A stretch of 64,000 nt of DNA from a phage. The translations under genes and the position numbers were made by a program. Below are positions 10,835 to 63,949 of this stretch, piece after piece (the first letter of the stretch is position 1; each line of letters begins with the position of its first letter). Where the stretch lies: sequence record PZ534511.1, one strand, 5' to 3'. Under the pieces are notes generated by a model. That model ran no database searches. It was given only the letters and a program-made list of their open reading frames with translations, and was not told the origin of the DNA.

Positions 10835-11168
10835 AGTAAAGGTTCTTACCGCTAGGAAGGTAGAAATCTGTTACCTCATAAAATCCACAATCGTCGCACT
10901 CACCTTCTTCAAACTTGGCCTTAACCTTAATACCGAGGAAGGTGAAAAGTTTATGGACATCTTCAGTTTCGAACTCCCAGGGAATGTTGTTTTCCGCATC
11001 GGTGTAGAACTGGATCAGCAGACCATTGTCCAGTTTACCAAAATACTCTGTGAAGTAACTTCCTTCCCAGAAATCTTTATGACAAATAATATCCATGCGT
11101 TTGCCCATAATAATGGTGTGAGCGTTTTGGGCATCGTCACGAATCAGTTTTGGCATTTCATAGATCAT
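10743..11168 (-). CDS. hypothetical protein
   Basis: Track ORF 141 aa; stop overlaps the proposed macro-domain start. Confidence 0.5.
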   Translation of the reverse strand: MIYEMPKLIRDDAQNAHTIIMGKRMDIICHKDFWEGSYFTEYFGKLDNGLLIQFYTDAENNIPWEFETEDVHKLFTFLGIKVKAKFEEGECDDCGFYEVTDFYLPSGKNLYYESHFGNSNMPQCWTEFFEIAEEELAYRDY

Positions 11169-11236
11169 CTTAGTTCTCCGGGTTCAACAGGTGGTGGTGC
11201 TACAGGAAGATCATAAAACATGGCTATCACAGTCTC

Positions 11237-11434
11237 TTACACAGGAATTGCTTCAAATAGACCGTTATCTATACCGTCCTTCAGATAGAGATTATATTCT
11301 ATGTCGGTATCTGTATAAAGGGCAGCATCCAGCATTCTATCTGTGAGTCCATCCATCGGGTGGAGAAACCACCACCCACGCCAGTCAAAGTAACAGCCTG
11401 GTGCATCTTCTCTTACACGGATTCGATAAATCAT
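11237..11434 (-). CDS. hypothetical small protein
   Basis: Track ORF 65 aa. Confidence 0.35.
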   Translation of the reverse strand: MIYRIRVREDAPGCYFDWRGWWFLHPMDGLTDRMLDAALYTDTDIEYNLYLKDGIDNGLFEAIPV

Positions 11435-11530
11435 GGGCAGTGGCCTCCTGTTAGTTATACATCCCAGTTTTCTTCGTTCATCACGTCCTCCCGTTCTATG
11501 AAGTTATAATTACACACCTTTCAACTTGTG

Positions 11531-11947
11531 TCAACAGAAAACTTCAACAAATTCTTCCACAGTTTTAATGTCGTGGGAAAAAGGTTTACGGCTATAACGG
11601 GCAATAGCACTATCAACCACCGCCCGGTACTCCAAATCTTCAGAATATTTCATGAAGCATTGCAGCGTCTCTGGGCAGATAGCTAAATAGCTCCACCACC
11701 CCTCTTCAGATTGGTAGTCGAATCCCATACTCTCCAACCATGAAGCATATACGCCTGCACCTTCAAGCCAGTGAGTATTTTCATCCAGAAACTTGTTAAT
11801 AGACATGTGAGCTTCTAAGCATTTATCCAGCTCTTTTCCGTTAACCAGCCATGCACTGACTGTGGCGCATCCAAGGTCTACAGATTGAGTTGACAGGTTG
11901 TATTGGTCATAGTTCTCAGGTTTAACAATGATATCTTCTAATGTCAT
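11531..11947 (-). CDS. hypothetical protein
   Basis: Track ORF 138 aa; RBS AAGGAGATCTGAAAA. Confidence 0.5.
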   Translation of the reverse strand: MTLEDIIVKPENYDQYNLSTQSVDLGCATVSAWLVNGKELDKCLEAHMSINKFLDENTHWLEGAGVYASWLESMGFDYQSEEGWWSYLAICPETLQCFMKYSEDLEYRAVVDSAIARYSRKPFSHDIKTVEEFVEVFC

Positions 11948-12596: not shown

Positions 12597-13823
12597 TTAG
12601 AAAGGGATCGAGTCATCGAACTCATACTGCGCCGGATTCTGATCCATCGGGTCATCTTCCTCATCATTTACAGGAGGAGCGTCTATAGTGTTTTGCTGTG
12701 GAGCAGCTTCCTGCTTGGCAGCTTGAGGTTCTTGATGGTCAGTGGACCCAGCACCGTTCTTGATCCAATCGTACAACGGCTCAGCCAGATTAGTCAAGAC
12801 ATCTTTTGCTTCTGCAGTAATTGCCGCTGCAAAATCCTCAACTTTCGTTTTCTTGTCAATACGGCGACAAGCGTTCAACACCGCATTACCGACACTGGCA
12901 CCTACTTCATCTTCGGTTCGGTTGGTGGCTTGAGCATACTCTTTCTTAAGCTCAATGGTGACTACGTGCAGTGTTTTAGCCACACCTAGTGGGTCGTCTA
13001 CCTTAAACCCGCGATCCAGGATGATTTGCAACGCGTTGATGCTATGTCCCGTCTCCACACCAATAGGGTCGTAAGAGGATTTACGCTTGCCACCAGAGCC
13101 TTGAGTGCCGTTCTCTGCCTTAGGGGGATAGGCTTTGAAACCACTGATAATGTTTCCGGTGTCTTTGTCAACAATGGCTGCAACACGACCACCTACCACC
13201 AGGTCTTTAAGCTGCTCATCAGTTACAACCATAGCACCTTCGCCAATCTTGTGGTCATTAACAGTAACCACGTTGCCAACAATCTGAGTCACATCGCCAT
13301 AGATGCGTAAAACGTCCTGATTGGCATTCTGCTGAGGTTTCTGCTTCTGGCCTTGTGATTGTGCACCTTGTTGCTGTTTTTGCTGCTGAGTCGCTGCTGG
13401 AGCCTCTCCTGCACCCAGCTTGACCATCTTAGCCAGTGAGCCTTTGTAATAGGTCTTACCGTTATGCTCGTTTGCCTTCAAAGGGATATTTACGATCCAT
13501 CCCGGCGTTACGGTTTCCCACTTGTCATCAATTTTAACAGAGACAGAGTCTTGATGACCAGGTTTAAGCAGCTTATCACCCATGCTGATCCAAACTTCTT
13601 CACCACCTTGAAGCAGGTTATCAGAGGAATCCAGTTCAGAAATCAGTAAAGAGATGGTGTGGCTGGATTCAATTTTCTTACCTTGCCACACAGTGGTTTT
13701 AATACCTGTTGTAGGATCAGCACCTTTGATAGGCTTGATGCTGACACGTTTAATCATGCCGTGAGCCAGTAAAACAGTTTCACGCGGATTCATCGGGTTA
13801 GCGAATTGTTGAATAACGCTCAT
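12597..13823 (-). CDS. single-stranded DNA-binding protein-like with acidic C-terminal tail
   Basis: C-terminus YEFDDSIPF matches the canonical SSB acidic tail ending in IPF; Gln-rich linker; location in the replication module. Confidence 0.6.
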   Translation of the reverse strand: MSVIQQFANPMNPRETVLLAHGMIKRVSIKPIKGADPTTGIKTTVWQGKKIESSHTISLLISELDSSDNLLQGGEEVWISMGDKLLKPGHQDSVSVKIDDKWETVTPGWIVNIPLKANEHNGKTYYKGSLAKMVKLGAGEAPAATQQQKQQQGAQSQGQKQKPQQNANQDVLRIYGDVTQIVGNVVTVNDHKIGEGAMVVTDEQLKDLVVGGRVAAIVDKDTGNIISGFKAYPPKAENGTQGSGGKRKSSYDPIGVETGHSINALQIILDRGFKVDDPLGVAKTLHVVTIELKKEYAQATNRTEDEVGASVGNAVLNACRRIDKKTKVEDFAAAITAEAKDVLTNLAEPLYDWIKNGAGSTDHQEPQAAKQEAAPQQNTIDAPPVNDEEDDPMDQNPAQYEFDDSIPF

Positions 13824-14188
13824 TATTTGTCTCCTTGTTCTTCGTTAGTGTTTGCCGTATGTGCAAACCCTGCTTGAATTAATTTGTCCTGAACTTGAGC
13901 CAACAGCCCCATTGCAAAACTTGTAGTCCCAGAGAGGGCCATTAGCATATCTCGTTGTTGAGCTACCCAACCTAAGGCATAGTCCAAACGACGATATTTT
14001 TCTTCTTCACGCAGAGCCTGAAATAATTGTTCAGCCTCCGGTTGTTGTGTGAGCTCCTGAAGTCTTCCCATGAAAGAAGAAAGCACTAGCAAAAGAGACA
14101 CTTGATCTTTACTTAACCCTAAGAAAAATTCTTGAGGTTGTTCTTGCTCGTTCATTGCAACCGACGTTTGATCGTTCATTTGTTCCAT
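13823..14188 (-). CDS. hypothetical protein
   Basis: Track ORF 121 aa; start overlaps the stop of the upstream gene. Confidence 0.45.
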   Translation of the reverse strand: MEQMNDQTSVAMNEQEQPQEFFLGLSKDQVSLLLVLSSFMGRLQELTQQPEAEQLFQALREEEKYRRLDYALGWVAQQRDMLMALSGTTSFAMGLLAQVQDKLIQAGFAHTANTNEEQGDK

Positions 14189-14271
14189 TATGGAATCTCC
14201 GATTTTATTTGAACAACATAGAAGGAGACACTATTTTAGCATCCCCTTCTGCAAATTACAATAGGTATTTG

Positions 14272-14517
14272 TTAGCCAATCACTTCAAAAGTTCCCCAAT
14301 TCCCGTCTAGCAGGCAGGTGATCGGATCCCCATCGTCGTCAAAGATTTCAAAGTTTTCAGCATCCAGGATGTGGTCCTCGAACACAATACTCTCGTCGCC
14401 ACCACCAGAAATAACAGCGTATTCCTTACCTTGAGTCAAGTTTTGACACCCTTTGCCACCAAAACCTACTTCCACACAACGTACTTTCTGTCCTGCGCGA
14501 GCAACTGCTTCAGCCAT
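14272..14517 (-). CDS. hypothetical protein
   Basis: Track ORF 81 aa; RBS AGGAGACCTTAAG. Confidence 0.45.
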   Translation of the reverse strand: MAEAVARAGQKVRCVEVGFGGKGCQNLTQGKEYAVISGGGDESIVFEDHILDAENFEIFDDDGDPITCLLDGNWGTFEVIG

Positions 14518-14534
14518 CTTAAGGTCTCCTGATA

Positions 14535-14855
14535 TTAATCGTCAAGTTCAAAATAGATTTTAACAGCTTCATCAAAGATTGGAATCCCGATGTTGTTGAT
14601 AAGCTGCCAAACTACCATATCTTTACCTGGGTCTGGGAGAATGTCAACCTTTCTCCATGCGCTGTATATCCAGTTTGGACCACCTTCTGCACTAACTGGC
14701 AGATTTTCACCAGCCTCCTGCAGATACTTATACAGCAAAAGATATTCTGGATACTCTAGAACACTGTCCTCTGTAGTATATAGCAGTTCACGGTATACTT
14801 TTAAAAACCCTGCTGGGGTGATGTTTTCAGTCTTCATTTGCTGCTTCTCCTGCAT
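14535..14855 (-). CDS. hypothetical protein
   Basis: Track ORF 106 aa. Confidence 0.45.
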   Translation of the reverse strand: MQEKQQMKTENITPAGFLKVYRELLYTTEDSVLEYPEYLLLYKYLQEAGENLPVSAEGGPNWIYSAWRKVDILPDPGKDMVVWQLINNIGIPIFDEAVKIYFELDD

Positions 14856-15219: not shown

Positions 15220-15536
15220 GCTTCCTCGTCGTCTAAGGAGTTGAAGATTTCACCGAAGTATTCTAAGACTTCTAGCTCCCGTGTGGTGCAGAAAACACAG
15301 TCACCGTTGTCATCCTCGATAACGGCCTCTTTACCCAGCACATCTACTTCAAGTTTATCGTTCAACAGGACGGCCCCTGTGTAAACTTTGTCAGCTGTGC
15401 AGTCCCGAAAAGCGGAGTCCTTCTCCAGATAGTCTGGCTTAACCTTGGCTTTAATTCGTTGATATTGTTTGGTCATTGCTATGGTCTCCTTTTTCTTAGA
15501 TGGGGCCATTATATCTGGCCCCATCTTTCTTGTCAA
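15216..15536 (-). CDS. hypothetical protein, paralogue family A (FRDCT / DxxGDxVxCT motifs)
   Basis: Shares AF[RK]DCT and DD[NE]GD[CS]V[FW]CT motifs with the adjacent 15540..15794 gene. Confidence 0.5.
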   Translation of the reverse strand: MTRKMGPDIMAPSKKKETIAMTKQYQRIKAKVKPDYLEKDSAFRDCTADKVYTGAVLLNDKLEVDVLGKEAVIEDDNGDCVFCTTRELEVLEYFGEIFNSLDDEEA

Positions 15537-32347: not shown

Positions 32348-32776
32348 TTAATCGTAGTGTGCCAAAATCTCTCCATCGTTGCAAGTTCCCTCTACAAAGT
32401 TATGAAGATTCATGCACTCATCTTGATAGAAGAATTTACCGCTTTTCAGCCGTAGGCCAAACAACTCCGCATCTCCACGATGGCAAGCCTCTACAAGTTC
32501 ATAGATTTCATACGGCAACTCTCCGTCGTCATGGAAGAATCCAGCCTTATCGTTGACATAAATGAAGAAATAATCACTGCTATCGCAAGCGTCCAATATT
32601 TTAAACCAGACTTCATCTACATCTTTTTCTCGGATATCGATCACGCAAGTGGAGCTGCATTCGTACTCCTTCTCCGGCTCCTCGGTCAATACCACCAGGT
32701 AGTTTCCCCGCTTACCTACTTTAGCCATACAACCCCCCTTAAGCTTTAGCCAAAATGGCGCTAAACTCTTCACCAA
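32348..32776 (-). CDS. hypothetical protein
   Basis: Track ORF 142 aa. Confidence 0.45.
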   Translation of the reverse strand: MVKSLAPFWLKLKGGCMAKVGKRGNYLVVLTEEPEKEYECSSTCVIDIREKDVDEVWFKILDACDSSDYFFIYVNDKAGFFHDDGELPYEIYELVEACHRGDAELFGLRLKSGKFFYQDECMNLHNFVEGTCNDGEILAHYD

Positions 32777-33923
32777 ACTCTTTTACAATCTTCATCAGGT
32801 TTGGGTATGCTTTGATCAGCTGAGCAACAATCTTGTCACGCCCTTTACCGATAAGCAAGGCATTTCCTAAGGCATTAGGTTTCATCATCGCCATAAAGAC
32901 TGAGAATACAAAATCTCGGTTCTCGTCCTTGAAGTTTTCCCAAAGGAAATCGAGGAAGTTTGCCACGCAGCTGACAAGATCTTCGTCTGAGATACTTGCA
33001 TTTTCCATCATATTGCGAATAGCGATACAACCTTCAGATCCAAGAATCCACAAAATGTCTGGCTGCTTAGGACCTACGTATTCTTTGCAGCCACCTGCCA
33101 TAATCCGACCGATTTCCGGTAAATTACGTTTCTTGGTGTGGTAAGTCCAGATCTCTACCGCTGCAGTGTGACCAATAGCACCTTGTAGAAGAACACGGGC
33201 CATAGCGTCAGAAATAATACCGCTGTCAAAATCGTGCAAGATGTCAGATGCAGCAACCCAAGATCGTGGTGTGGCAAAAGATGGACAATTAATCTCAGCC
33301 ATAGCCTCATAATTATCAATAGCTGATGGAACTCTTTTCAGATACCCAATTACAGAGGAGTGAACCCCGTTGAGGAATGCGTAGTCCTCAATAAACACCT
33401 CTGCATTGCTTGTAACCTCTACAATGATAAAACGGTTAGCCAGAGGGGCTTCGAGCGCCGAAAGAACCGCACCATCTGTAGAACGGTTACCCGCAGCCAC
33501 AAAAACAGAACCTTTAGGGAATGCATAGGTGCCGCACTTGTGGTCAAGCATAATTTGCATTGCAACCTTTTGCAGGTAGTTATCTGCATGAGTGAGCTCA
33601 TCCAGAAAGATAATTCCGCTCCAGTCAGGATCCGCAGGCCAAAATTCTGGAATTGCAAACACTGTACGTGTAGTTCCATCCGCTTCTACAGGGATAGGTA
33701 GCCCAGATAAGTCGGCAGGATCTTTATCTGACAGTCGCACGTCAACAAGGTTGTCATCTCGCTCACCGAACATATTATCAGCGATCTGCTTCATCACCTG
33801 GCTTTTACCCACACCCATTGGTCCCAAAATTAGGACAGATCGGCTATGACGTTGGGCAAACTGAATAATAGCTGGCAACTCACGGACAGTGATTTGACCA
33901 CTTTCGAATACGTTTCTTGACAT
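32739..33923 (-). CDS. MoxR-like AAA+ ATPase
   Basis: Walker A ILGPMGVGKSQ; Walker B IIFLDELTHAD; size about 390 aa. Confidence 0.65.
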   Translation of the reverse strand: MSRNVFESGQITVRELPAIIQFAQRHSRSVLILGPMGVGKSQVMKQIADNMFGERDDNLVDVRLSDKDPADLSGLPIPVEADGTTRTVFAIPEFWPADPDWSGIIFLDELTHADNYLQKVAMQIMLDHKCGTYAFPKGSVFVAAGNRSTDGAVLSALEAPLANRFIIVEVTSNAEVFIEDYAFLNGVHSSVIGYLKRVPSAIDNYEAMAEINCPSFATPRSWVAASDILHDFDSGIISDAMARVLLQGAIGHTAAVEIWTYHTKKRNLPEIGRIMAGGCKEYVGPKQPDILWILGSEGCIAIRNMMENASISDEDLVSCVANFLDFLWENFKDENRDFVFSVFMAMMKPNALGNALLIGKGRDKIVAQLIKAYPNLMKIVKEFGEEFSAILAKA

Positions 33924-35254: not shown

Positions 35255-35525
35255 TTGTCATTTTACATTCTTGAAATTTTAACACAAGACGGTGATTGTG
35301 TCTAGTGTCTAAAAAGATTTTTTCAACCATCAGGCACACGGTATAACCGTCCATCTTGTTGACAACAAAATCTCCAGGATGAGGGAGGATGTCTCCCGGA
35401 TTGGGGAAACATAGTCCACTCAGAAAGGCATCGTCAGTGGTGGACTTAATAGATTTCCACACACTGTCTGCCTGAACATGTTCACCGACGTAATATACAT
35501 TACCACATGCCTTCATCATAGTCAA
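35247..35525 (-). CDS. hypothetical protein
   Basis: Track ORF 92 aa. Confidence 0.4.
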   Translation of the reverse strand: MTMMKACGNVYYVGEHVQADSVWKSIKSTTDDAFLSGLCFPNPGDILPHPGDFVVNKMDGYTVCLMVEKIFLDTRHNHRLVLKFQECKMTIA

Positions 35526-36421
35526 ACCCTCGCATAAATTAAACTTGTATCAGTATACTTCTTTAATGGGTAAATATCCTGTCCATAGATGCAATCATTA
35601 AACACCTCATCTACCCAAAGGCTACACTTATATCCCATCATTTCTAAAACACCCATCTCTTCTTCGGTAAACTTATCACCGCTCTTGCAAGATGTCAATA
35701 CCTCATTCTGAACTCTTGCTACCTCGAAGCGGTTATTGGCAATATCGCTATTGGCGATCAAATACTCACCTAGAGGGTGTGCGGCATTAAAGATGCACAG
35801 CGGACGGCTGACGTAATAGTCTCCAGGTGTATAAAAATTGTTGAGGTCTTTCACTAGAACATTCTTATCAGTCACTTCATTTATAACATCATGCATATCG
35901 CACATCTTTATATGTTTGAGGATTCCATCCCCCATCACAAAATAAAAACTTGCTGAGACACTTTCGGCATAGATCTTACTAGATCCGTTGTAGTTGTATT
36001 TTACTCGGATGCTAACGGGGGTTTTTCCTGTCGCGTTAGCCATCATCCAAAGAAATGGCAGCTCATACTTCTCCTCTGAGGAAACAAAAGGTGAGGTAGC
36101 CAGAGATCGAAAACCTCCAGAGAAGTTGAAAGTTACAGAACCGCTCCGGCGGTATGATACCGCGTATTCTACTTTTATATCGACATACCCATTGGAATAG
36201 GTGTGTCCTTCATTATCTAAATATGTCCACTTATCAGACCCAGATACCAATCTACGCTCAATAACCTTCATCACTATAGGAATTAATGGGTTGGTACAAA
36301 CCGCTTTTGAAGTAGCTTTATCATCTAAAGCCTCGTAAATTGCAGAAAGGATGTCCCCAGCTGAAAGATTGGTTGTTATGTCCTGTTTCCACCGCGTACT
36401 AAAACTGTTAAGATTTGCCAT
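35522..36421 (-). CDS. hypothetical protein
   Basis: Track ORF 299 aa; RBS TAGGAGCAC; promoter TTGACT-17-TATAGT at 36452-36480. Confidence 0.5.
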   Translation of the reverse strand: MANLNSFSTRWKQDITTNLSAGDILSAIYEALDDKATSKAVCTNPLIPIVMKVIERRLVSGSDKWTYLDNEGHTYSNGYVDIKVEYAVSYRRSGSVTFNFSGGFRSLATSPFVSSEEKYELPFLWMMANATGKTPVSIRVKYNYNGSSKIYAESVSASFYFVMGDGILKHIKMCDMHDVINEVTDKNVLVKDLNNFYTPGDYYVSRPLCIFNAAHPLGEYLIANSDIANNRFEVARVQNEVLTSCKSGDKFTEEEMGVLEMMGYKCSLWVDEVFNDCIYGQDIYPLKKYTDTSLIYARV

Positions 36422-36451
36422 AAGTAAGTGCTCCTATGTTAGTTTTCTTTC

Positions 36452-36480
36452 GAATGGGTGCACTATATTGTGGAGTTAGA
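36452..36480 (-). promoter_or_regulatory. sigma70-like promoter (TTGACT-17-TATAGT), divergent partner of the 36504 promoter
   Basis: Read on the minus strand upstream of the 35522..36421 gene. Confidence 0.5.
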
Positions 36481-36497
36481 GTAAAGTCAACACGTTT

Positions 36498-37541
36498 TTG
36501 ATGTTGACATCTGTTGAGACAATTGATACGATTTCTTCACTTACAGAGCACGAGAGACGACTCATGAATCTTGAAAAATATTATACACCAGAAGAGTTAG
36601 AGCGCTTGCTCAAAAAATATAGACGCAAACAGAATAACGCACGGAAACGAGATATAGAGTTCGACCTGTCATGGGAAGAATACCTCCTATTTGGTAAAAA
36701 ACTTTTAGGAGATGGAGTATGCGACTATACCCTTATACCTTTTGACATGCACACAGATGAAAACGGGCTGGGGAATCCTTTCTACCCATCTCTGGAGCGG
36801 ATAGATGATGAAGGTCCTTATGCGGCTGATAACTGTTGTGTGGTGGGATTGAGATGCAACTCTCTAAAGGACTGTCTGGTAGATAAAAAGACTGCAGTCT
36901 TGATTAAAGACGAAACTGATCGAAAAATTGTCCAGCAGATGATGCTCCACCTGAGCGAAGAGCGTATGGAGAAATTGAAAGGTGATTATACTTTTGAAGA
37001 TTTCATCTTGCAATATGGAACGGAAGAGGATAAACTAGCACTCTTTGACGAAGAAGAGGAGGAAGATATGCTACCGATGTCTAAAGTTACTTATCGTGCA
37101 CCCAAGAAGCACATTTCCGACATTGTAAACGAGCCTATCACAGAAGAGATTGAAGAAATGACGCAACAGGTGCATGAAGAGGAAAAAGAGACTCAGGAGG
37201 TCGAAGAGGAGCTTACAGAAGAGGTTCCTGCACTACCTGATGATGTTGAGATTGCCAAAGCTTACACTTTCTATTGTCAAACGTTCTACGATGTAGGTAT
37301 GAAAGTTGATCTGTCATTCAGCCAATTTAAGAGTTCGTATATTCGCAAATGCTGTGCTTTAACTGGTGAACGTCTTGGAGCTGGACTTAAACCCCTGTTG
37401 GTGACCGACTGGAATAAAGGTTTCACTAAAGGAAACTTTATGGTAGTATCTCCAATTATGGAGAAAGCTATGACAGATCTTATGAAGACCACCCGCATGA
37501 CAATGACCGAGTTGGCAGGTATTTTCAAACACGTTAAATAA
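36498..37541 (+). CDS. protein with two tandem degenerate HNH/endonuclease VII-like domains (probable true start about 36564, MNLEKYY...)
   Basis: Internal duplication (DLSWEEY..GVCDYT.. and DLSFSQF..CCALTG..); CxxC..N..CN..K-like remnants; track start is TTG inside the promoter; contains internal MSKVTYRA start-like repeat. Confidence 0.4.
   Translation: MMLTSVETIDTISSLTEHERRLMNLEKYYTPEELERLLKKYRRKQNNARKRDIEFDLSWEEYLLFGKKLLGDGVCDYTLIPFDMHTDENGLGNPFYPSLERIDDEGPYAADNCCVVGLRCNSLKDCLVDKKTAVLIKDETDRKIVQQMMLHLSEERMEKLKGDYTFEDFILQYGTEEDKLALFDEEEEEDMLPMSKVTYRAPKKHISDIVNEPITEEIEEMTQQVHEEEKETQEVEEELTEEVPALPDDVEIAKAYTFYCQTFYDVGMKVDLSFSQFKSSYIRKCCALTGERLGAGLKPLLVTDWNKGFTKGNFMVVSPIMEKAMTDLMKTTRMTMTELAGIFKHVK
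36504..36532 (+). promoter_or_regulatory. sigma70-like promoter (TTGACA-17-TACGAT) driving the plus-strand island
   Basis: Hexamers read directly; overlaps the first codons of the over-extended track ORF. Confidence 0.5.
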
Positions 37542-37553
37542 TGACAGGGGCCA

Positions 37554-39035
37554 ATGGCCCCTTCTGGAGTTTTAATGGATAGCAGAAGTTCAGAAATCAT
37601 TGCCTCGCAGAAAGATGATGCCCTGAGAATGTTGCAGGCTGCACGTATGTATCTCCTTGAAAAGCTGCCGTTTTATGGCACACTACTGTCAGGGTTGCAG
37701 TTCGTAGAAAACCACACATGGTGCTCCACCATGGCAACCGACCATAAACGCATCTACTACAGCCCTGAGTTCATTATGGGGTTGGCGGATGAGCGTAAAA
37801 CCATTCTTAAAGCATCTCTGACTGACAAGCAGTTTGAGATGGCTGAGGTTTTCTATTCCCCAAAATCTGTGAAAGAGGTGGCCTTTCTTCTGTCACATGA
37901 GGTGGGGCATATTATCTGTGATCATCTGGTCCGTGGTAAAAGCTTTGAGCCGGAACTGTTCAATATTGCTTGTGATCACGTTATCAACACAGGTCTTGTG
38001 GTTGACTTTAGCAAGCCTCCTTGTGTTTTCTTCCCGAAGGGGAAAAGCACTGAGTTCGTAAAAGGTAAGCCTTTTGGCTTCTTAGCTAATTGCTACTGCG
38101 ACATGAGGTTTCATGGATGGATTGCTGAGAACGTCTATGCAGTTCTTGATAAACAAAGAGATCAGAATGGCGGTAAAAGTAAGAACGGTAAAGGTGAGAA
38201 CTCCCAAGGAGATAAACGACAAACCGATGATCACATGAGCGGGAACGGTGGCACTAGTGATGATCTTGGAAAGGCTATGGGGTATGATCAGCCGCAACCA
38301 GTAATCAGTCAATCTGACAAAGATCAGGCCATGCAGGACTCTGGTGACATGTTGGAAGCAGCAATGCAAGCTTCAGGAGGTCGTTGCCCCGAGGCGGTGC
38401 GCGAGTTTGTCAAAAACAGAGGCAAGCCTGTAATCAATTATATAGATATTATTAAGCAACGTATGTTATCTAAAAGAAAGGCTGAGTTAACCTACAGAAA
38501 ACCTGGTCGCCGATCTGGGTCTTTGACCACCACAATGCGAAAAGTTGGAGCTATAAACAAGAATCAACACGTTATTGTTCCTGGTCGTAATCCGGAAAAC
38601 ACTATAGATATTGTAGTGGCTTTAGACGTTTCTGGGTCGATCTCACAAAGAACTTTAAAGAAAATGTTCAATGAGATCACCGGGTTGTGCAATTTGTATA
38701 AAGAGTTTAAGGTTACTATGTTCTGTTGGTCAACGGAGGTTGGAGAGGTTAAAGTATACACTCGCGGTAACATCGATGAGATGATTAACTATGAGGTCCA
38801 CTCAACATGGGGCACAACAGCCGCCTGCGTGTTCGAGTATCTGGATGCTAACATACCGAATGCAAAAGATGTCATCGTCCTTACCGACCTCTACTTTGAG
38901 CATAACTTTGAACAAAAGGCTGTTGACAACAAGTGGAAAAAGTACGATACTTTATGGGTTCTCACCGAAGGGTATAATAAAAATTATATCCCGAGCTTTG
39001 GGAAAACTGTGGAATTAATCGAGTACGCTAAGTAA
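37554..39035 (+). CDS. VWA-domain protein with N-terminal HExxH metallopeptidase-like motif
   Basis: HEVGHIICDH motif near residue 115; MIDAS motif VALDVSGSIS in the C-terminal half. Confidence 0.6.
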   Translation: MAPSGVLMDSRSSEIIASQKDDALRMLQAARMYLLEKLPFYGTLLSGLQFVENHTWCSTMATDHKRIYYSPEFIMGLADERKTILKASLTDKQFEMAEVFYSPKSVKEVAFLLSHEVGHIICDHLVRGKSFEPELFNIACDHVINTGLVVDFSKPPCVFFPKGKSTEFVKGKPFGFLANCYCDMRFHGWIAENVYAVLDKQRDQNGGKSKNGKGENSQGDKRQTDDHMSGNGGTSDDLGKAMGYDQPQPVISQSDKDQAMQDSGDMLEAAMQASGGRCPEAVREFVKNRGKPVINYIDIIKQRMLSKRKAELTYRKPGRRSGSLTTTMRKVGAINKNQHVIVPGRNPENTIDIVVALDVSGSISQRTLKKMFNEITGLCNLYKEFKVTMFCWSTEVGEVKVYTRGNIDEMINYEVHSTWGTTAACVFEYLDANIPNAKDVIVLTDLYFEHNFEQKAVDNKWKKYDTLWVLTEGYNKNYIPSFGKTVELIEYAK

Positions 39036-39041
39036 GAGAGG

Positions 39042-39308
39042 ATGGTATTTATGGCAACAGAGGTAGTAATTAAAGCTGAACGCCCAGTTAAAAAAGCTAT
39101 CAACACGTTCCCTGTAGGAACCATTGTGAGCATGATTACAGAGTCAGGCCGTGTATCTACACTGCTAATCGTGAAATCTGCATGCTCATCTTGTGTGTGG
39201 GCATACGATCTTGACGAGAAAGAACTGAAAGATTTTGTTGGGGAGCTGAAAGCAACAGAGCTTGACGCTCGTATCGAAGTATTTGGTGAAACTATGAAGG
39301 AAGAGTAA
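39042..39308 (+). CDS. hypothetical protein
   Basis: Track ORF 88 aa; RBS AGAGAGGATGG. Confidence 0.45.
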   Translation: MVFMATEVVIKAERPVKKAINTFPVGTIVSMITESGRVSTLLIVKSACSSCVWAYDLDEKELKDFVGELKATELDARIEVFGETMKEE

Positions 39309-39571
39309 TGACTACAAAAATCACTATTGCAGAACCAAAAGCTAACACGCAACCTATCGAAAAGTTTAAATGCGGTGAGGTGGTAACATTCACACCGGAT
39401 AATGAAGATGCTAAGATTTTTGCCATGGTCACAGCCGAGTGGATGTGTGACAATACCACACAGGTGCTGCGTTTTGACACCTATCTTACAGATGAAATCA
39501 GGAACGACAAGATTGTGACTGGTGTGGATACTGAGATTATTTTCTACAAGAGCTTTTTAGAGGGTTTCTGA
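39308..39571 (+). CDS. hypothetical protein
   Basis: Track ORF 87 aa; start overlaps the upstream stop. Confidence 0.45.
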   Translation: MTTKITIAEPKANTQPIEKFKCGEVVTFTPDNEDAKIFAMVTAEWMCDNTTQVLRFDTYLTDEIRNDKIVTGVDTEIIFYKSFLEGF

Positions 39572-39572
39572 T

Positions 39573-39806
39573 ATGGCAAAAATTCGTAAATTATCCAGCA
39601 ATCAGGTTGTGAAAGACTTTGAATCTGGAGAGATTTTGTATGTTCGTGATGCAGATGATGAAGGTGAAGATCTTGTTATGCTGGTAGGGCACGCTGAAGA
39701 CGGATGCATACAGGCTGTTTTTCTTGAAACAGCTATGGTGCACTGGATAGAGCTGGACCTGAAAGCACGAAAACCTAAAGCAGAAATCCTGATTTACGAA
39801 GATTAA
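39573..39806 (+). CDS. hypothetical protein
   Basis: Track ORF 77 aa. Confidence 0.45.
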   Translation: MAKIRKLSSNQVVKDFESGEILYVRDADDEGEDLVMLVGHAEDGCIQAVFLETAMVHWIELDLKARKPKAEILIYED

Positions 39807-39822
39807 CAAAAAGGAGATAACC

Positions 39823-40272
39823 GTGTTGAGCAAACGTGAATGCGACAGCATTAGCCTGAATTCTTATAAGAAACAATGGTTTGGGGTGGAAGTTTGCCGA
39901 CTGCGGCTAGGATCCTACCTGAACTTCGTCTATTATGAGAGTGACAGTCGTATCGTTTCTTATGAAGTGTTCTACACTAAGAACACATTCGAACTGCGCC
40001 GTAAAGTAGATGGCGGGAGAACTACCGCTCAGAATAATTGGGAAACTATCCTACCTACAGATGTTATAGGAAGTCCCCTGAATGTATCTGAAGATGAAAA
40101 TCTTATGGTTCATGCTATGATGGGACTTGACAGCTTAGAGCTGGCAATCTATGATATGTCCATCGAAGCAGTTAAGCTGGACTACATCGAAAACACTTTA
40201 GAGGAAGGTATCAAGAAGTTTCTCAGTGAGAAATTAAAAGACCACTTTCATAAGGAGCTATACCTGTTATGA
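39823..40272 (+). CDS. hypothetical protein
   Basis: Track ORF 149 aa; RBS AAAGGAGATAACC. Confidence 0.5.
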   Translation: MLSKRECDSISLNSYKKQWFGVEVCRLRLGSYLNFVYYESDSRIVSYEVFYTKNTFELRRKVDGGRTTAQNNWETILPTDVIGSPLNVSEDENLMVHAMMGLDSLELAIYDMSIEAVKLDYIENTLEEGIKKFLSEKLKDHFHKELYLL

Positions 40273-40514
40273 AGACCCGTAAAGAACGTAACAAAATTTT
40301 ACCTGGAGCTCTAGAACACCTGATGAAGTGCAGATCTATTTGGCACTCTGCCAAGGAAGGGCAGAAGGTGGTTGTGGTTAGTGACAATACCAACCCGTTT
40401 GGAGATTATACCACTATGATGGCCCCGTATGTCCGTGATGGTGTTGTGGAAGTGGTCCCTTACAACGGTCTGCATGAACGGCACTTTGAAAGCACTTTGC
40501 TAGTGGAGCTATAG
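40269..40514 (+). CDS. hypothetical protein
   Basis: Track ORF 81 aa; 4 nt overlap. Confidence 0.45.
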   Translation: MKTRKERNKILPGALEHLMKCRSIWHSAKEGQKVVVVSDNTNPFGDYTTMMAPYVRDGVVEVVPYNGLHERHFESTLLVEL

Positions 40515-40516
40515 TC

Positions 40517-41083
40517 ATGGCGGTCAATGTGGCTTACAACACAGGAAAGCTTGACAGAGACATTGGGTGTCTTGTCCTTTCAGATACAGAAGAGTATTGG
40601 GGTTATGGGTTGCTGTCAGACCCACACCCGAGCAACCTTGTATCAACAGTGCTATACCGCTACGACCCTGTGCCAACGGTACACGACAAAGACATTCACG
40701 ACCTTCGGATCAAGTGTCTGGAAGATCTGCTGAACAATGGTTGCAACGATCTGCGGGTAGCCAAAGAGAAGCTTACAAACATTCACAAAGAGGAAGTGAT
40801 GAGCACCCTCAGTAAGAGATCAGTGCACAAAAAGATGATGCTGAACTTTGCAATGGGTATCTACATGGACGGGTATAAGGGAGGTGATCCGGTCCTCAAG
40901 CTTCGCTGCCCGACACTGTGGGAAAGAGTGGTTGACAGTAAGGACGGCACTGCCCTGCTCGAACTCCACACCGCAGGTTGGATTTGGCGGTATGTAGACG
41001 GATACCCTCTGTGGGCATGTGGACCTGGGGAATTTGTTGACAGACCTAGCGCGGTAGTGGACTTGCTATTACAGTTTGAATAA
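40517..41083 (+). CDS. hypothetical protein
   Basis: Track ORF 188 aa. Confidence 0.5.
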   Translation: MAVNVAYNTGKLDRDIGCLVLSDTEEYWGYGLLSDPHPSNLVSTVLYRYDPVPTVHDKDIHDLRIKCLEDLLNNGCNDLRVAKEKLTNIHKEEVMSTLSKRSVHKKMMLNFAMGIYMDGYKGGDPVLKLRCPTLWERVVDSKDGTALLELHTAGWIWRYVDGYPLWACGPGEFVDRPSAVVDLLLQFE

Positions 41084-41142
41084 AAGGTGAGTTATAAGGT
41101 ATTCATGCACCTACCAACAACAATACAACAGGAGAGACTGAG

Positions 41143-41418
41143 ATGACGAAAGAAGAGGCCGACGTATTAGATTTTGCACTAGAGGCTACGCAGGAGGCTT
41201 TGGTGTTAGCTTGGAAAATGAACCAGCGTGCTGCAGAATGCAACCGTCGCATCAATGAGATTCTGGGCATGTCTATGTATGATTTCACTATGCATGCCGG
41301 AGAGATTCCTGAACTAACTGCAGAGATGAATGATCTTGACAATAAAATTAATATCATTCTGAAGACAGCAGAAACAACCCACCAAACCGCCCGTAAATTT
41401 ATCAACGAGAAGGTGTGA
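41143..41418 (+). CDS. hypothetical protein
   Basis: Track ORF 91 aa; RBS CAGGAGAGACTGAG. Confidence 0.45.
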   Translation: MTKEEADVLDFALEATQEALVLAWKMNQRAAECNRRINEILGMSMYDFTMHAGEIPELTAEMNDLDNKINIILKTAETTHQTARKFINEKV

Positions 41419-41894
41419 ATATGGACTACAGCTACTGCGGGGAAGAAGTTCCTTTTAACTACAGTAATCTTACCACAAGCAATCCATACGAGACTCGCCA
41501 CGGCACACACATCATTGCCATCGACTTTGATGGAACGTTTAATGCGAGCCCTTTCATCTTCTCCCGCCTGATCAGGGATCTGAAGAAGGAGGGGTGGACA
41601 GTCTACCTTGTGACTTTCCGATTCATTACTCAAGACAATGTAGACATTGAGTATTGGCGCAAGGAGCTCGATGTTGGTGTGTTCTACACAGGCGGTGTGC
41701 AGAAGGCAGCCTACTTGGCGCAGTTTGATATCTACCCAGATATCTGGATTGATGATTCTCCGGCATGTATTCCGGCTAAGAATCAGTTAGAGTTTGCAAT
41801 GAAGGAGATTGAGTACAAGTCTGAGGCTAAGCGGAACGGATGGCCCTTTATTATTGAAGATTACCCAGATCCTGAACCGGAGAAAGAGCCATGA
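41415..41894 (+). CDS. HAD-superfamily phosphatase (candidate 5'-deoxynucleotidase)
   Basis: HAD motif I IAIDFDGTF and C-terminal acidic motif IWIDDSP. Confidence 0.5.
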   Translation: MNMDYSYCGEEVPFNYSNLTTSNPYETRHGTHIIAIDFDGTFNASPFIFSRLIRDLKKEGWTVYLVTFRFITQDNVDIEYWRKELDVGVFYTGGVQKAAYLAQFDIYPDIWIDDSPACIPAKNQLEFAMKEIEYKSEAKRNGWPFIIEDYPDPEPEKEP

Positions 41895-42091
41895 GGCGAA
41901 GATATCATTACCTGATGTGGAAGTTATATCATGGTGCTGCTAAAGCTTACCGCACCGTGTTTGGTAATGACAATCACTGCATTATGTTACACCTTACCGC
42001 CATTGAACATCACAATGAGTGGATTCGTGCAATCGTAATAGGTGACAAAGATTTTAAGTAAAGTATTGCTTTCTAGATGGAGACTGATTAA

Positions 42092-42472
42092 ATGTGCAAG
42101 TGTAAATCCTATAATTGGAAAGTGAAAGGTGCCAAGCATCAAAATGTTATCGTTGATGTGCCTAAAAAGCTCCGTGACGGCAAAAAACGTGTGTGCCTTG
42201 ATAAGTGCATGGCTAAGCCTATCATGAGTCTATGGGCGGCAGGATTGAAAACTCTAAACTGCTGCTGTGGTCATAACAAAGATGTTCCAAGTATCATTAT
42301 CCCAGAGGATGCAGACCCTAAAGCTTATGCCAAAATACTGACCCGCTACCCCAGCACCTTCCTGATCGGAAAATGGTGTCACGATGAACTTCAATGGTGG
42401 GTAGCATACGGTAGTATAGGTACTGCTTTTGGCTTCCCAGCTTTGTCAGAGCGCTACGTCAAAGCGTCATAA
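42092..42472 (+). CDS. hypothetical Cys-rich protein
   Basis: Track ORF 126 aa; CKCK..C..C..CCC cluster. Confidence 0.45.
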   Translation: MCKCKSYNWKVKGAKHQNVIVDVPKKLRDGKKRVCLDKCMAKPIMSLWAAGLKTLNCCCGHNKDVPSIIIPEDADPKAYAKILTRYPSTFLIGKWCHDELQWWVAYGSIGTAFGFPALSERYVKAS

Positions 42473-42577
42473 CCTATTTTAAGGCCTCAAACGAGGCCTG
42501 TGCCTTCATAAATTGCCCTACCCTGTGTGATTACCCTCCTGAACAAAATACCCCCCCAGAATCGCTTAAAATTAAAC

Positions 42578-42606
42578 TTGACACCAACACCAGATCTATG
42601 TATGAT
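42578..42606 (+). promoter_or_regulatory. sigma70-like promoter (TTGACA-17-TATGAT)
   Basis: Hexamers read directly; overlaps the first ATG of the track ORF, so the gene probably starts at the RBS-supported Met near 42637. Confidence 0.5.
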
Positions 42607-43044
42607 TATCTCACCAACCGAACAGAGGAGATCGTCATGGATAATCTTGCGGATGTAAATGTCGAAATTGTTAAACTAAAGTTCTTAGGCTTTCGAGACC
42701 CTTATTCTTTAACAGCTATACTAATGGACACTCACTTCACACCAGGTAAAGAGTACACTGCCTTCCGTTATATTTGCGGAGATCACGAATCAGCTTATAG
42801 TGTGAATACAAACCTCGGTGAGGGATATTTCATCAGAGATATCGCAGATCACTTGTGGGGTATGTGGGAGTTGGTGGAGGAAGAGAATAAATCCCTTCCT
42901 AAAGAGATTTGGGTGCACACCTTCCACACAGGTAAGTTTGGAGGTACGGAACATAAATCTATCCACTATGATGAAGAAAGTGCCATTAAACAACAAGCTG
43001 TGCTTGGTGGATCTGTAGAAAAATTTGTTAAATGCGAGGACTGA
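42598..43044 (+). CDS. hypothetical protein (probable start about 42637, MDNLADV...)
   Basis: Internal ATG preceded by AGAGGAGATCGTC RBS. Confidence 0.5.
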   Translation: MYDYLTNRTEEIVMDNLADVNVEIVKLKFLGFRDPYSLTAILMDTHFTPGKEYTAFRYICGDHESAYSVNTNLGEGYFIRDIADHLWGMWELVEEENKSLPKEIWVHTFHTGKFGGTEHKSIHYDEESAIKQQAVLGGSVEKFVKCED

Positions 43045-43047
43045 GAA

Positions 43048-43248
43048 ATGGCTGATTTTTGCAAAGATTGTTCTGAAGAGTTGTTTGGTCGTGACTGCGG
43101 AGATCTGAAAGGACTGATCACAGAGGACCAGTGGAAGGAAGGTTATGCGGCCCCTGTTATCTGTGAAGGCTGTGGTTACACCTATGTCGATCATGAAGGT
43201 AAGCGTGTCCAGCCGTCTGAAGATGGGTCGTGTTGGGAATATTACTAA
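43048..43248 (+). CDS. hypothetical zinc-ribbon protein
   Basis: CKDC ... CEGCG motifs; RBS upstream. Confidence 0.45.
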   Translation: MADFCKDCSEELFGRDCGDLKGLITEDQWKEGYAAPVICEGCGYTYVDHEGKRVQPSEDGSCWEYY

Positions 43249-43253
43249 TTATA

Positions 43254-43287
43254 AAAAGAAAGGGGCCGTCTGGCCCCTTTTTATTTG
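43254..43287. terminator. bidirectional rho-independent terminator between convergent gene blocks
   Basis: AAAAGAAAGGGGCCGTCTGGCCCCTTTTTATTT: perfect GGGGCC/GGCCCC stem flanked by an A-run and a T-run. Confidence 0.7.
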
Positions 43288-43294
43288 CCTCCTG

Positions 43295-46200
43295 TTAACT
43301 AGGGAAGTTTGTATAAGCTTCGAGATGGTATTGCTGGTTACCAGGTAGCATAACACCTATGCTTGCAACACCTAATGTTCTACCACCAGGGTTCCACTGA
43401 AACTTAAATCCAATCCAACCCGAGCTTCTGGCTGCATCAATGTTGTCACTGTACCCAAAAGTGGCTAGACCATCAACACCTGCTCCGAAAAGCAGTTGTA
43501 TCTGGTTCCTTGGTAGGCCAATAATTTCAGGTATGTAAGCACCAAAAAATGTAGGGTTGGTGGTTGTGGTCGGATTGTTCATGACCGGACCGGTAAAGAC
43601 CCTCATATTGGACGTTCCTGCAGGTCTAGGGTAAGCCCCGTCAAGAGGATTTCCTTCCCAAATAAACCACTGAGGTGCCATCTGTCTGACAGTAAACGAT
43701 GTTGAAGACGTTTTGCGGCCTGCATCATCTCTAACTACAAACTTTATGGTGACATTCCCAGTAGCTTTAAATGTTACCAGCCCTGTGGTGGCATCCACTG
43801 TTGCAATGTTGGTATTACTACTTTCCCAAGTCTTTCTAATCCCGGATACGTTGGAAGGGGTGATAGAAGGTTCCTGCATCTGCAGTTTACCGCCCACAAT
43901 CCCTATGCCGTTGCCCGGATTATACAGCACACCGACCTCGTCTATAATGTTCCCTGCTTTGAGACTATACTTCCTTGAGAAGTTGTAAGTTCCGTTATAA
44001 GTGTGTGTCCCTGAGAATGTGACATCTGCCTTCCCGTAAGAGATGCAAACCAACGCATACTTCCTGTCAGGCAACGTTTCTCCAGTCTCTGGGTGAGTTT
44101 TACCTACCTGGAACACACTCGGGTCAGTAGAGTCGTGACTATCACTAACGGAGCTTGGACCGCCCATCAACTGTGACAAACAATTCCTTACCCATGTCCA
44201 GTTATTATCGCTGGAGAAGTCCACAGTCAAATCAAACACAACCCACTCATTTGGCTTCCACACAGGTGTTGCAATGGACTTGCCTACACCGCCTCCTTGG
44301 AGTGTTGCCGACTGTTCGGTGATCAGTGCCGCATAGGCCAGAGTTCCTAAACTCAGAGTCTGGCTTGCTGTCCTCACTACCTTAGAATCAGCATCTGTGA
44401 AGTTGTTGATGATTTGGAATGTGCCATAAGTGTTTTTACAGGTAATTCTGGCGTTCAGCGTGTCAATCTTCCTCACATCTGCCATAGCAGTGTTAGACAC
44501 AGAGAAGTCAGAAGCTTTAGCTGAGTTTGCCGCAACAGCAGGATCAACGTTAAGAGTTGCGTTGAACTGACAGGCAGGGGTAACCAGCAGCTTGTTATCA
44601 CCTATTTGCTTCCATGAAATACTTTGGACAGGTAGATTCCATTTAATACCTGAGAAAACTTTAGCAACCCTTGGCCCCAAAGCTCCAGTCCTGTTGTCTT
44701 TACAGCACATAGACATGGTGATCGTTGACGGAGTTGCCTGACCGAACAATTCCTGTGCTTTTGCAGAGGACATGGTGTAGAAATTGTCCTTAACAAACTC
44801 ATCAGCGGCTAAAGATCCATCAGCCCTCCACCACTGGACCTGATACCCTGTTTTATCCCAGCCTCCAACCTGCTTCAAGTCCTCCCAAGAGATTTCCAGA
44901 TCCCCCGTGGTAGGGTTGATTGCAGCAGTTCCTGGTGTACCGGATGACCACAATGGGATATCAAACCACGCAGGTTTAACAGATTGCACTGCATTAGGAC
45001 CTATTGCAGCAGCAAGTTGTTGACCCATCAGCACGCGAGCATCTTTCACCAGGCCCCATTCTATCATAGACCCAGAGTAACCTTCTTTCTTGTAGGCAGA
45101 GGATCCGTTCAAATGGATGAGCCTGCTGCAGTCGAAGCCATACGCTCCACCACCGTTAGGATCTGCAAAGTTGGTTATGATTCTATCCCTAATATTTTTC
45201 CATGCCCTACCTCCAATCTCGTAGTCATGGTCATAACATCTTTGCAACGTTGTCCAGCAAATGATTGCCATTCTTCTGCCGCCTGTGAACCCGAAAGCGC
45301 CGTCATTCAGCTCTTTCCACAGGTAACAGTTGGTTGTCCACATAGCCCTGTGGATATTGAACCAGTTTATAGATTTGGCTGAGTTGTTCCACTGAGTCCC
45401 AGGTAATTCAGGCCACACTGCATTGACTAGCATGTCCTCTGTACCGGCATCTATTAAGAAGCCTCTTACCTTCTTGCCCATACCTACCCTGTCTTTAGCA
45501 ATCCAATTGCCAAACAGTCTCAGTTTTGGACCATAAACAACATCCTCTGGGTGCTCAAAAGAGACATACTTTAAGTAGATTGTTGGGTCACCGTAGGTGC
45601 CATCACAAACACTTTTGTGCATGTTTTCGCCAAGGTCTAGACGAAGCCCCGTCACTACTTTAGACGTGTCGGTGAATTTGTCTGTTAAGTCAAATTCATA
45701 CCACCACCACCCACCACCTAGCATAAATTTCTTGCATCGCACAGCGTCTGTGTCAGATATTCTCTTATCCCCTGCAAAAGGTGAATCAGCAAACTGATAG
45801 TGCAGAGCAGTCTCAAATAGGTGGGTGGAAGTTCCGTTCTCTGCAAGAACTTGCTTACCTATCAGATCGCACTTAATGATCATCACAACACGCTTGTATC
45901 CGTTTGTTACCGGAACTTGCATAGATATGGATGTTCCATCCATGTTCGATCTTAGATCACTCATGATGATATAGGGGTCGACAGCGTTGCCTAAAGTTTC
46001 AGGCCCTGGAATTATCTTGTATTTCTTGACCTGGCCCATAAATCTGTCACTGGCGTAAGTTGCAGCCTCAAAACAAGAGCCACCACCAGGTAATTCTCCA
46101 GGTCCCCAGAAAAATGCCCCATAGCAGTTATAGAACCACTTATTAGGGTCGTATTTGTTCTTGAAGGTCTGGACCTCGTTGGCCTGTTTTGTCAAGAAAA

Positions 46201-58377: not shown

Positions 58378-58444
58378 GTCACTCCTCCGGTATGAAAATC
58401 TCTACAAGGTATTTTACCAAATTTTGTAACAATAGTCAATCTGA

Positions 58445-63890: not shown

Positions 63891-63949
63891 TGTGCCTCCG
63901 GGTTAAACAATCATGATAGCTATTTTACCAGATTTTAAGTTAATACGCA

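Follow-up and report, generated by a model that had tools for sequence, protein, structure and literature searches.

The rightward gene block of a Vequintavirus genome, with predicted divergent promoters and a shared terminator, and its counterpart in phage rV5

The rightward block and its published counterpart

Kropinski et al. (2013; Virol J 10:76, PMC3606486) proposed four transcription units for phage rV5, one of which was formed by genes 11-26. It was reported in the same study that the GC skew switches at both ends of this unit and that gp11 is a probable Srd homologue, and the promoters P010, P011 and P025 and the terminators t026/t027 were listed in its Table S4. P11 and both terminators are also present as features in the rV5 GenBank record (DQ832317). 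Here, we describe the equivalent block in a 64,000-nucleotide (nt) stretch of phage DNA (sequence record PZ534511.1), referred to as the window, in whose coordinates all positions are given. The nearest record to the window was that of Escherichia phage JeffSchatz (98.9% identical), and the window belongs to Vequintavirus, the rV5-like myoviruses, a genus widely used in Escherichia coli phage therapy and biocontrol work.

In the JeffSchatz segment that matches the window, the annotation lies on a single strand apart from 14 consecutive genes, bas55_0055 to bas55_0042. Their equivalents, numbered here g1 to g14, occupy positions 36564-43248 on the plus strand and form the sole plus-strand block of the 64 kb. 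The window itself gave the same picture, since its GC skew was positive in the ~36-44 kb bins only and long plus-strand open reading frames (ORFs) predominated nowhere else in an ORF tiling. A first-pass annotation of this DNA had described the sole rightward-transcribed block as holding about 13 genes; the block is borne out by these three lines of evidence, and the count has to be raised to 14 according to the JeffSchatz annotation and the matches to PHROG families. All 14 ORFs matched such families with strong E-values, so they are considered real conserved genes. When a 7.1-kb region was compared with phage records, 122 matches at 90-99% identity were obtained, nearly all of them to Escherichia Vequintavirus.

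A separate observation concerned 16 records named 'Campylobacter phage' (e.g., MG065646 and MG065674; one of them UNVERIFIED), which were 94-95% identical to these E. coli Vequintaviruses, and whose host labels look doubtful.

The block of the window shares its gene content and order with rV5, with 83-100% protein identity for the 14 genes. P011 is an identical 29-mer in both phages, P010 has the same hexamers with changes in the spacer, P025 has the same -35 box, and the stem and tracts of the terminator are the same, its loop being GTCT in the window and GTTT in rV5. The phages differ in that rV5 ORFs 12 and 13 correspond to a single g2 of 486 amino acids (aa) and ORFs 22 and 23 to one ORF in the window, resulting in 14 genes in the window and 16 in rV5. 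The rightward block with its promoters and terminator is, altogether, a real, ordinary and already published feature, known from the 2013 rV5 study and from GenBank features of rV5, Gotham and Murica. Taken as a whole, it is very probably the Vequintavirus counterpart of the rV5 'genes 11-26' unit, driven by sigma70 and closed by a shared terminator.

The divergent promoter pair

The block is separated from the leftward genes by a 142-nt divergent gap, in which the following signals were located:

36504..36532, plus strand: rightward sigma70-type promoter with extended -10 (rV5 P011), TTGACA-17-TACGAT, 10/12 in a consensus scan
36490->36462, minus strand: leftward sigma70-type promoter (rV5 P010 equivalent), TTGACT-17-TATAGT, 10/12 in a consensus scan
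36486..36508, unstranded: inverted repeat GTCAAC-N11-GTTGAC produced by the back-to-back -35 boxes, from a repeat search and alignment

In the rightward promoter, the TG of the extended -10 lies at 36524-36525 and TACGAT at 36527-36532, and the predicted start is near 36539-36541. The leftward promoter comprises TTGACT at 36490-36485 and TATAGT at 36467-36462, with an A5 run just upstream and a predicted start near 36455. Both positions are compatible with the annotated gene starts, 36564 for g1 and 36421 for a 299-aa gene (36421-35522), which the leftward promoter heads and which is followed by MoxR, rIIA/B and replication genes. The coordinates given for the rightward promoter in the first-pass annotation coincided exactly with the scan. 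The leftward promoter proposed there also exists, its position (36452-36480) being 10 nt too far left, with neither hexamer in register. In the Gotham GenBank record, both promoters are annotated at coordinates exactly equivalent to those of the scan.

Sites matching at least 10 of the 12 consensus positions were counted across the window and in shuffles: 34 versus 9.7+-3.1 for the minus strand and 15 versus 7.8+-2.4 for the plus strand. The strong promoter-like matches were enriched on the coding strand, co-oriented with the genes. By chance, 0.019 such sites per strand would be expected in the 142-nt gap, and ~4e-4 for both strands. The gap was then compared among 10 sequences (alignment A5), including a metagenomic lineage whose g2 protein is 61% identical to that of the window (the 61% lineage). 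Invariant columns made up 20 of the 26 positions in promoter motifs versus 24 of the 98 elsewhere in the intergenic DNA (Fisher p 1.5e-6, a value that overstates the independence of related sequences and describes a footprint, not a strict probability). Spacers varied freely, and invariance was seen at the -35 hexamers of both promoters, at the TG and at T1, A2 and T6 of each -10 hexamer, the positions most important for sigma70. Judged from their hexamers, 17-nt spacing, location and selective conservation, both divergent sites are predicted sigma70-type promoters.

The back-to-back -35 boxes create an inverted repeat with a single occurrence in the window and in each Vequintavirus-like locus, and the spacing between the two hexamers is 13-14 nt in all relatives. 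This uniqueness, and a spacing kept across divergent lineages, would also suit a repeat acting primarily as the operator of a dimeric phage or host regulator, or as a mutually exclusive polymerase site, that switches both units together; with start sites ~85 base pairs (bp) apart, the two polymerase footprints would overlap, each reaching the -35 box of the other promoter. However, the two -35 hexamers account fully for the repeat, the sequence separating them is variable (ACACGTTTTTGATG versus AACATTTTTTCA), Pfam, NCBIfam and PHROG searches identified no candidate DNA-binding regulator in the block, and the promoters of Seunavirus 4MG are arranged differently. A primary operator role is, on this evidence, unlikely, and the repeat is better read as two promoters placed back to back.

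Since boxes 13-14 nt apart would make the RNA polymerase footprints overlap, it can be speculated, with low confidence, that the two promoters compete for one polymerase-binding platform, the junction acting as a switch that partitions transcription between the Srd/VWA and MoxR/replication units. A conserved hairpin between g1 and g2 (described below) would, in addition, lower the expression of the remaining genes by attenuation and thereby yield an excess of the Srd-like protein. The T/A run between the -35 boxes is an A-tract for the leftward promoter only. If this doubtful proposal were true, the gap would hold a regulatory design rather than merely two neighbouring promoters.

The bidirectional terminator

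The right boundary of the block is marked by a single element:

43253..43286, unstranded: bidirectional intrinsic terminator (rV5 t026/t027), a hairpin with A-tract and T-tract

It occupies the 46-nt gap between the stop of g14 (43248) and the stop of a gene encoding a 1875-aa lateral tail fibre (43295). The hairpin, AAAGGGGCC-GTCT-GGCCCCTTT at 43259-43280, has a perfect 9-bp stem with six GC pairs (arms 43259-43267 and 43272-43280, loop GTCT), flanked by an A-tract (43253-43261) and a T-tract (43278-43286). AAAAAGAAA enters the stem from upstream and TTTTTATTT leaves it downstream, and the RNA tails are UUUUUAUUU on the plus strand and UUUCUUUUUAU on the minus strand. For the plus strand, folding gave an energy of -19.3 kcal/mol and a z-score of -4.3; the minus-strand values were -16.7 kcal/mol and -3.6, and none of 200 shuffles equalled either in stability. 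Strong hairpins numbered five in the window versus 1.35 per 64 kb in shuffles; the one at 43259-43280 was the only one of the five with both an A-tract and a T-tract, a combination found in no shuffle. Stems and both tracts were invariant in eight Vequintavirus sequences, in which the loop was GTCT, GTTT or AAAC, and the terminator is annotated in the Murica GenBank record. Stem, tracts, fold scores and conservation uphold the prediction of a perfect bidirectional terminator, previously placed at 43254-43287. An Rfam scan of 35500-44000 at E<=1 returned nothing but a sub-threshold MicX match over the terminator.

It was also observed that, in near-identical genomes (alignment A6), some loops read GTTT and others its reverse complement AAAC, the window having GTCT at 43268-43271. 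A flipping of the loop within the palindromic stem would explain this alternation.

Whether the hairpin serves both directions equally has to be weighed, since a generic terminator scan listed 43259-43280 on the minus strand only, probably because the stem extension uses up the T-run on the plus strand. In the 61% lineage, moreover, the hairpin has a long upstream A-run, which is a minus-strand U-tract, and just CAAGTTGTTTCC on the plus strand. The element could accordingly be seen as essentially a terminator of the late tail-fibre operon, with rightward RNAs ended weakly there or elsewhere (e.g., at 42482-42499) and a bidirectional look that comes from the A-rich stop region of g14. Against this, the window and all eight aligned Vequintavirus sequences share an unchanged plus-strand tail, TTTT(T)ATTT, as rich in U as the minus tail, folding is more stable on the plus strand than on the minus strand, and the rV5 authors called terminators on both strands. 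The one-way explanation is possible but improbable, and termination of both convergent units at this hairpin is preferred.

A hairpin in another part of the window deserves mention. The longest perfect one (11 bp, AGATGGGGCC...GGCCCCATCT, 15498-15536, minus strand) overlaps a 12/12 consensus promoter, TTGACA-17-TATAAT, at 15536->15508 on the minus strand.

Internal signals and nested units

Between these boundaries, further promoter-like sites and hairpins were found on the plus strand:

37546..37562, plus strand: 7-bp GC hairpin separating g1 from g2, immediately before the ribosome-binding site of g2 (fold, conservation)
38923..38951, plus strand: internal promoter-like site in the 3' end of g2, TTGACA-17-GATACT, 10/12
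40127..40155, plus strand: internal promoter-like site in g6, TTGACA-17-TATGAT, 11/12
42482..42499, plus strand: 7-bp hairpin AGGCCUC-AAAC-GAGGCCU after g12, lacking a U-tract (fold, conservation)
42578..42606, plus strand: internal sigma70-type promoter (rV5 P025), TTGACA-17-TATGAT, 11/12, in the 164-nt gap before g13

The hairpin between g1 and g2 (-14.0 kcal/mol, z just -1.2) is present in all Vequintavirus loci and is replaced by a different GC hairpin in the same position in contig L007 of the 61% lineage; it is a candidate attenuator or 3'-end stabiliser of the g1 message. The hairpin after g12 (-13.1 kcal/mol, z -3.3, 0 of 200 shuffles as stable) is invariant in five Vequintavirus sequences. 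Among the promoter-like sites, P025 keeps its -35 box in the relatives, with TATGAT, TAGGAT or TATAAT as its -10, and its position fits the annotated start of g13 (42637). At the position of the site in g2, ~112-115 nt before the g2 stop, contigs L007, L008 and L010 carry a 12/12 TTGACA-17-TATAAT. The site in g6 is kept in rV5 and in loci L005 and L006, which are too close for this retention to be informative.

The rV5 promoter P020, with its 21-nt spacer, was considered as well and has no convincing counterpart in the window: the scan gave no site there, and in the visible part of the sequence the window reads GCTAT where rV5 has ACTAT.

The internal promoter-like sites and conserved hairpins argue that the block is probably no simple single operon, and that it is made of several nested units, driven by the host polymerase and sharing one terminator. 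The proposal that it is an independently regulated module therefore holds for its boundaries, which are real and conserved, and may not hold for a single independent unit, given the internal sites and hairpins and a MoxR partner encoded in the leftward unit.

Proposed expression of the block

According to the explanation favoured here, unmodified host sigma70 RNA polymerase would transcribe the block rightward from the extended -10 promoter at 36504-36532, and the back-to-back sigma70 promoter at 36490->36462 would launch the leftward unit, which holds a fucosyltransferase-like gene, the MoxR ATPase, rIIA/B and replication genes. The first rightward product would be a T4 Srd-like candidate host-takeover factor, followed by the DUF2201 metallopeptidase/VWA protein, whose MoxR partner would come from the divergent unit, and then by small genes without assigned function, a HAD-like protein and Cys-rich proteins. 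All rightward transcripts, together with the leftward late tail-fibre transcripts, would end at the shared terminator (43259-43280), which would keep the convergent units from reading into each other, that is, antisense through the block and the reverse.

A putative late-promoter motif of rV5, TGGTAAAATA, was found 16 times in the window with at most one mismatch, versus 6.2 expected, with 13 of these sites on the minus strand; it was absent from the intergenic positions of the block. Within the tail and baseplate region, this motif is present in exact form at 58410-58419 and 63921-63930, both on the minus strand. From the near-consensus sigma70 signals, the host-takeover type of the first gene and the absence of the late motif from the intergenic regions of the block, we infer early or middle expression by unmodified host polymerase. 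The functioning of the promoters and the terminator in vivo and the roles of the internal signals are predicted on the same footing.

The promoter-like hexamers might instead be unused, and the block transcribed from other signals by a phage-modified polymerase as a middle or late class. The rV5 authors did suspect that late promoters form a class of their own and that gp11 takes part in a switch, and the searched literature held no experimental data on the transcription of the block. This is nevertheless very unlikely, as the positional and phylogenetic footprint falls on exactly the bases critical for sigma70, co-oriented consensus sites are enriched window-wide, and the late-like motif is missing from the intergenic regions of the block.

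Several points weigh against transcription by host sigma70 polymerase towards a shared terminator, in addition to the relatedness of the aligned promoter sequences. As classes, neither promoter-like sites (28 versus 21.8+-5.1) nor terminator-like sites (9 versus 9.2) were enriched in a 12-kb stretch by generic scans, so that the support comes from position, strength and conservation and not from motif counts alone. The plus-strand -10 of the 61% lineage matches the consensus at just three of six positions (TAATGT) and depends on the TG. The hairpin of that lineage, with an A9 run upstream only and no downstream T-tract, resembles a one-way terminator serving the late operon. The right boundary differs in Seunavirus 4MG, and locus L011 carries the same genes within a long co-directional cluster. 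Finally, no experimental transcript mapping or transcriptome of any Vequintavirus was found in the searched literature, and the functional statements are predictions.

Genes of the block

The first gene of the block, which is its most informative, was missing from the functions listed in the first-pass annotation:

36564..37541, plus strand: g1, 325 aa, T4 Srd-like (rV5 gp11), from PHROG, BLASTP and hhalign

The g1 product matched PHROG 4592, 'decoy of host sigma70' (4e-13), and PHROG 1400, 'Srd anti-sigma factor' (1.5e-10). By BLASTP, its residues 8-143 aligned with residues 4-133 of T4 Srd (E 2e-7), and its residues 249-295 aligned with the same T4 Srd segment (E 1e-3); hhalign against T4 Srd gave a probability of 78.6%. 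Because its N- and C-terminal parts match the same segment, g1 is interpreted as two Srd-N-like domains joined by an acidic linker. The duplication was visible only via T4 Srd, as the direct BLASTP comparison of the two domains gave E 1.3. A tblastn search of phage genomes with g1 did not reach T4, Pfam, NCBIfam and PDB sequence searches returned nothing usable, and an AlphaFold2 model built from a seven-sequence alignment was judged unusable (pLDDT 48). The labels carried by relatives of g1 (anti-sigma factor, anti-termination protein, HNH endonuclease) are annotation guesses. T4 Srd has been reported to stimulate RNase E in the degradation of host mRNA (Qi et al. 2015, in the form cited in PMC7430671), and g1 is a candidate host-takeover factor by its resemblance to it.

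In many database proteins and some GenBank records (e.g., I29), g1 starts at ATG 36501 and has 346 aa. This ATG falls inside the -35 box of the predicted rightward promoter, and the 21 extra residues are missing from homologues at 58-68% identity to g1, for which reasons the 325-aa start fits better.

The second gene and its putative partner lie on opposite sides of the divergent promoters, each 1 to 2.5 kb away:

37575..39035, plus strand: g2, 486 aa, putative metallopeptidase (DUF2201_N) with a VWA-like domain (DUF2201), from Pfam
32739-33923, minus strand: MoxR-type ATPase, 394 aa, PHROG 1297, annotated as MoxR in JeffSchatz, rV5 and 4MG

Both Pfam domains of g2 scored above their cut-offs (DUF2201_N, 100.1 bits versus 23.2, 2.2e-28; DUF2201 VWA-like, 43.8 bits versus 26.4, 3.4e-11), which agrees with the VWA protein that had been proposed, and g2 homologues were found in 625 phage records. 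The Pfam AAA matches of the 394-aa ATPase were all under the cut-off. A MoxR ATPase is the usual partner of VWA/DUF2201 proteins, and the same split of MoxR and g2 was found in rV5 and Seunavirus 4MG. With MoxR in the leftward unit and its VWA partner in the rightward one, the two units are functionally linked.

In rV5 (DQ832317, 5501-6962), the VWA/metallopeptidase gene is annotated as two overlapping ORFs, 12 and 13, and it is one intact gene in the window and JeffSchatz. This suggests a frameshift or a sequencing error in the reference rV5 record.

The remaining genes of the block are the following:

39042..41418, plus strand: g3 to g9, seven small genes with no assigned function, each matching its own PHROG family (E<=1e-33)
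39042-39308, plus strand: g3, PHROG match
39308-39571, plus strand: g4, PHROG match
39573-39806, plus strand: g5, PHROG match
39823-40272, plus strand: g6, PHROG match
40269-40514, plus strand: g7, PHROG match
40517-41083, plus strand: g8, PHROG match
41143-41418, plus strand: g9, PHROG match
41421..41894, plus strand: g10, 157 aa, HAD-like by motifs, candidate small capless phosphatase or nucleotidase
41891-42061, plus strand: g11, 56 aa, PHROG 12006
42092-42472, plus strand: g12, 126 aa, Cys-rich, PHROG 12958
42637-43044, plus strand: g13, 135 aa, PHROG 15992, with a GAGGAG ribosome-binding site
43048-43248, plus strand: g14, 66 aa, CxxC...CxxC, PHROG 2210

An all-against-all BLASTP of the block genes gave no significant match, and a paralogy of g3-g5 is unsupported. 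Compared with the window, locus L006 has an insertion of ~1 kb (10500-11543) that separates the homologues of g8 and g9; as HNH endonucleases are annotated in this block of some relatives, the insertion may be a homing endonuclease.

The HAD-like motifs of g10 (D35xD37xT39, T65, K95 and D111-D112) occur in order and are invariant in five homologues at 39-66% identity (alignment A2). Pfam, NCBIfam and PDB sequence searches with g10 gave no match, even at E 1-10. Its AlphaFold2 model (pLDDT 61.5) had only weak best matches in Foldseek, to a model of the P-type ATPase CopA (E 0.015) and to the C-terminal domain of Nir2 (E 0.025), none at E<=1e-3; both are, we assume, HAD-type folds. The HAD phosphatase of the first-pass annotation thus rests on four invariant motifs, and a profile or PDB sequence match to accompany them was not obtained.

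A similar outcome was seen for the zinc-ribbon proteins also proposed there. In g14, the two CxxC pairs (CKDC...CEGC) have the expected spacing, and the profile matches (Pfam Zn_ribbon_RPB9, E 0.85; ADK_lid, E 0.27) were far under threshold; Pfam, NCBIfam and PDB sequence searches with g12 and g14 returned nothing usable. None of gp11-26 is marked 'MS evidence' in the rV5 gene table; none of the 14 block genes is flagged as a virion protein in rV5, and the block is described as non-structural.

Comparison with other lineages and known systems

As the unit, its promoters and its terminator were predicted for rV5 in 2013, the block matters little beyond correct annotation. Its signals provide precise, testable coordinates for a first transcript map of a Vequintavirus, the promoter position favours a start that gives the Srd-like protein 325 aa rather than the 346 aa of many records, and the MoxR/VWA pair is flagged as split across divergent promoters.

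The genes of the block are retained to different extents outside Vequintavirus. g1, g2 and g10 are kept in the 61% lineage, Seunavirus 4MG and a 46% lineage, with g10 found in 4MG and L011; for g6-g9 and g11, retention is confined to the 61% lineage, where g3-g5 are mostly lost; and g13-g14 are limited to Vequintavirus proper, being absent from the 61% lineage. A g12 homologue (63% identical) is present in L011, upstream of the g1 homologue. The 61% lineage consists of four IMG/VR contigs (L007-L010, sample 3300045988) that represent a metagenomic phage lineage and fall in a gap of the GenBank phage collection, which holds no g2 identity between 95% and 60%. These contigs keep the back-to-back promoters, and their plus-strand block is longer and partly different.

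When the terminator is compared with the bidirectional intrinsic terminators between convergent genes, a known general class in E. coli and its phages, it presents the same GC-rich palindromic stem, A-tract and T-tract, U-run ending each RNA and short convergent gap. No distinctive difference from this class was seen, and the terminator of the window is a textbook example.

With respect to srd in the early region of T4 (NC_000866), the N-terminal Srd domain is shared with g1. The likeness covers just ~130 aa; in g1 the domain is duplicated and an acidic linker is present, and the full-length architecture is not matched. T4 srd is preceded by host-type promoter signals, and g1 is likewise.

The cluster of Seunavirus 4MG (KF550303) is also opened by an Srd-like gene, with the VWA protein in the rightward cluster, MoxR in the leftward cluster and a TTGACA-17-GATAAT promoter in the divergent gap. 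A stretch of ~1.2 kb nearly without annotated genes (~13370-14590 of 4MG, locus L013), with repeated 'ctcgatcg...tttttc' units followed by GC-rich sequence, is located where this rightward cluster pauses. The 4MG proteins are, however, just 39-50% identical, its -35 boxes lack the same back-to-back arrangement, and no terminator facing the tail operon closes its rightward cluster. The layouts of 4MG and L011 differ from that of the window, so that the island layout belongs to this lineage and not to the genes that compose it.

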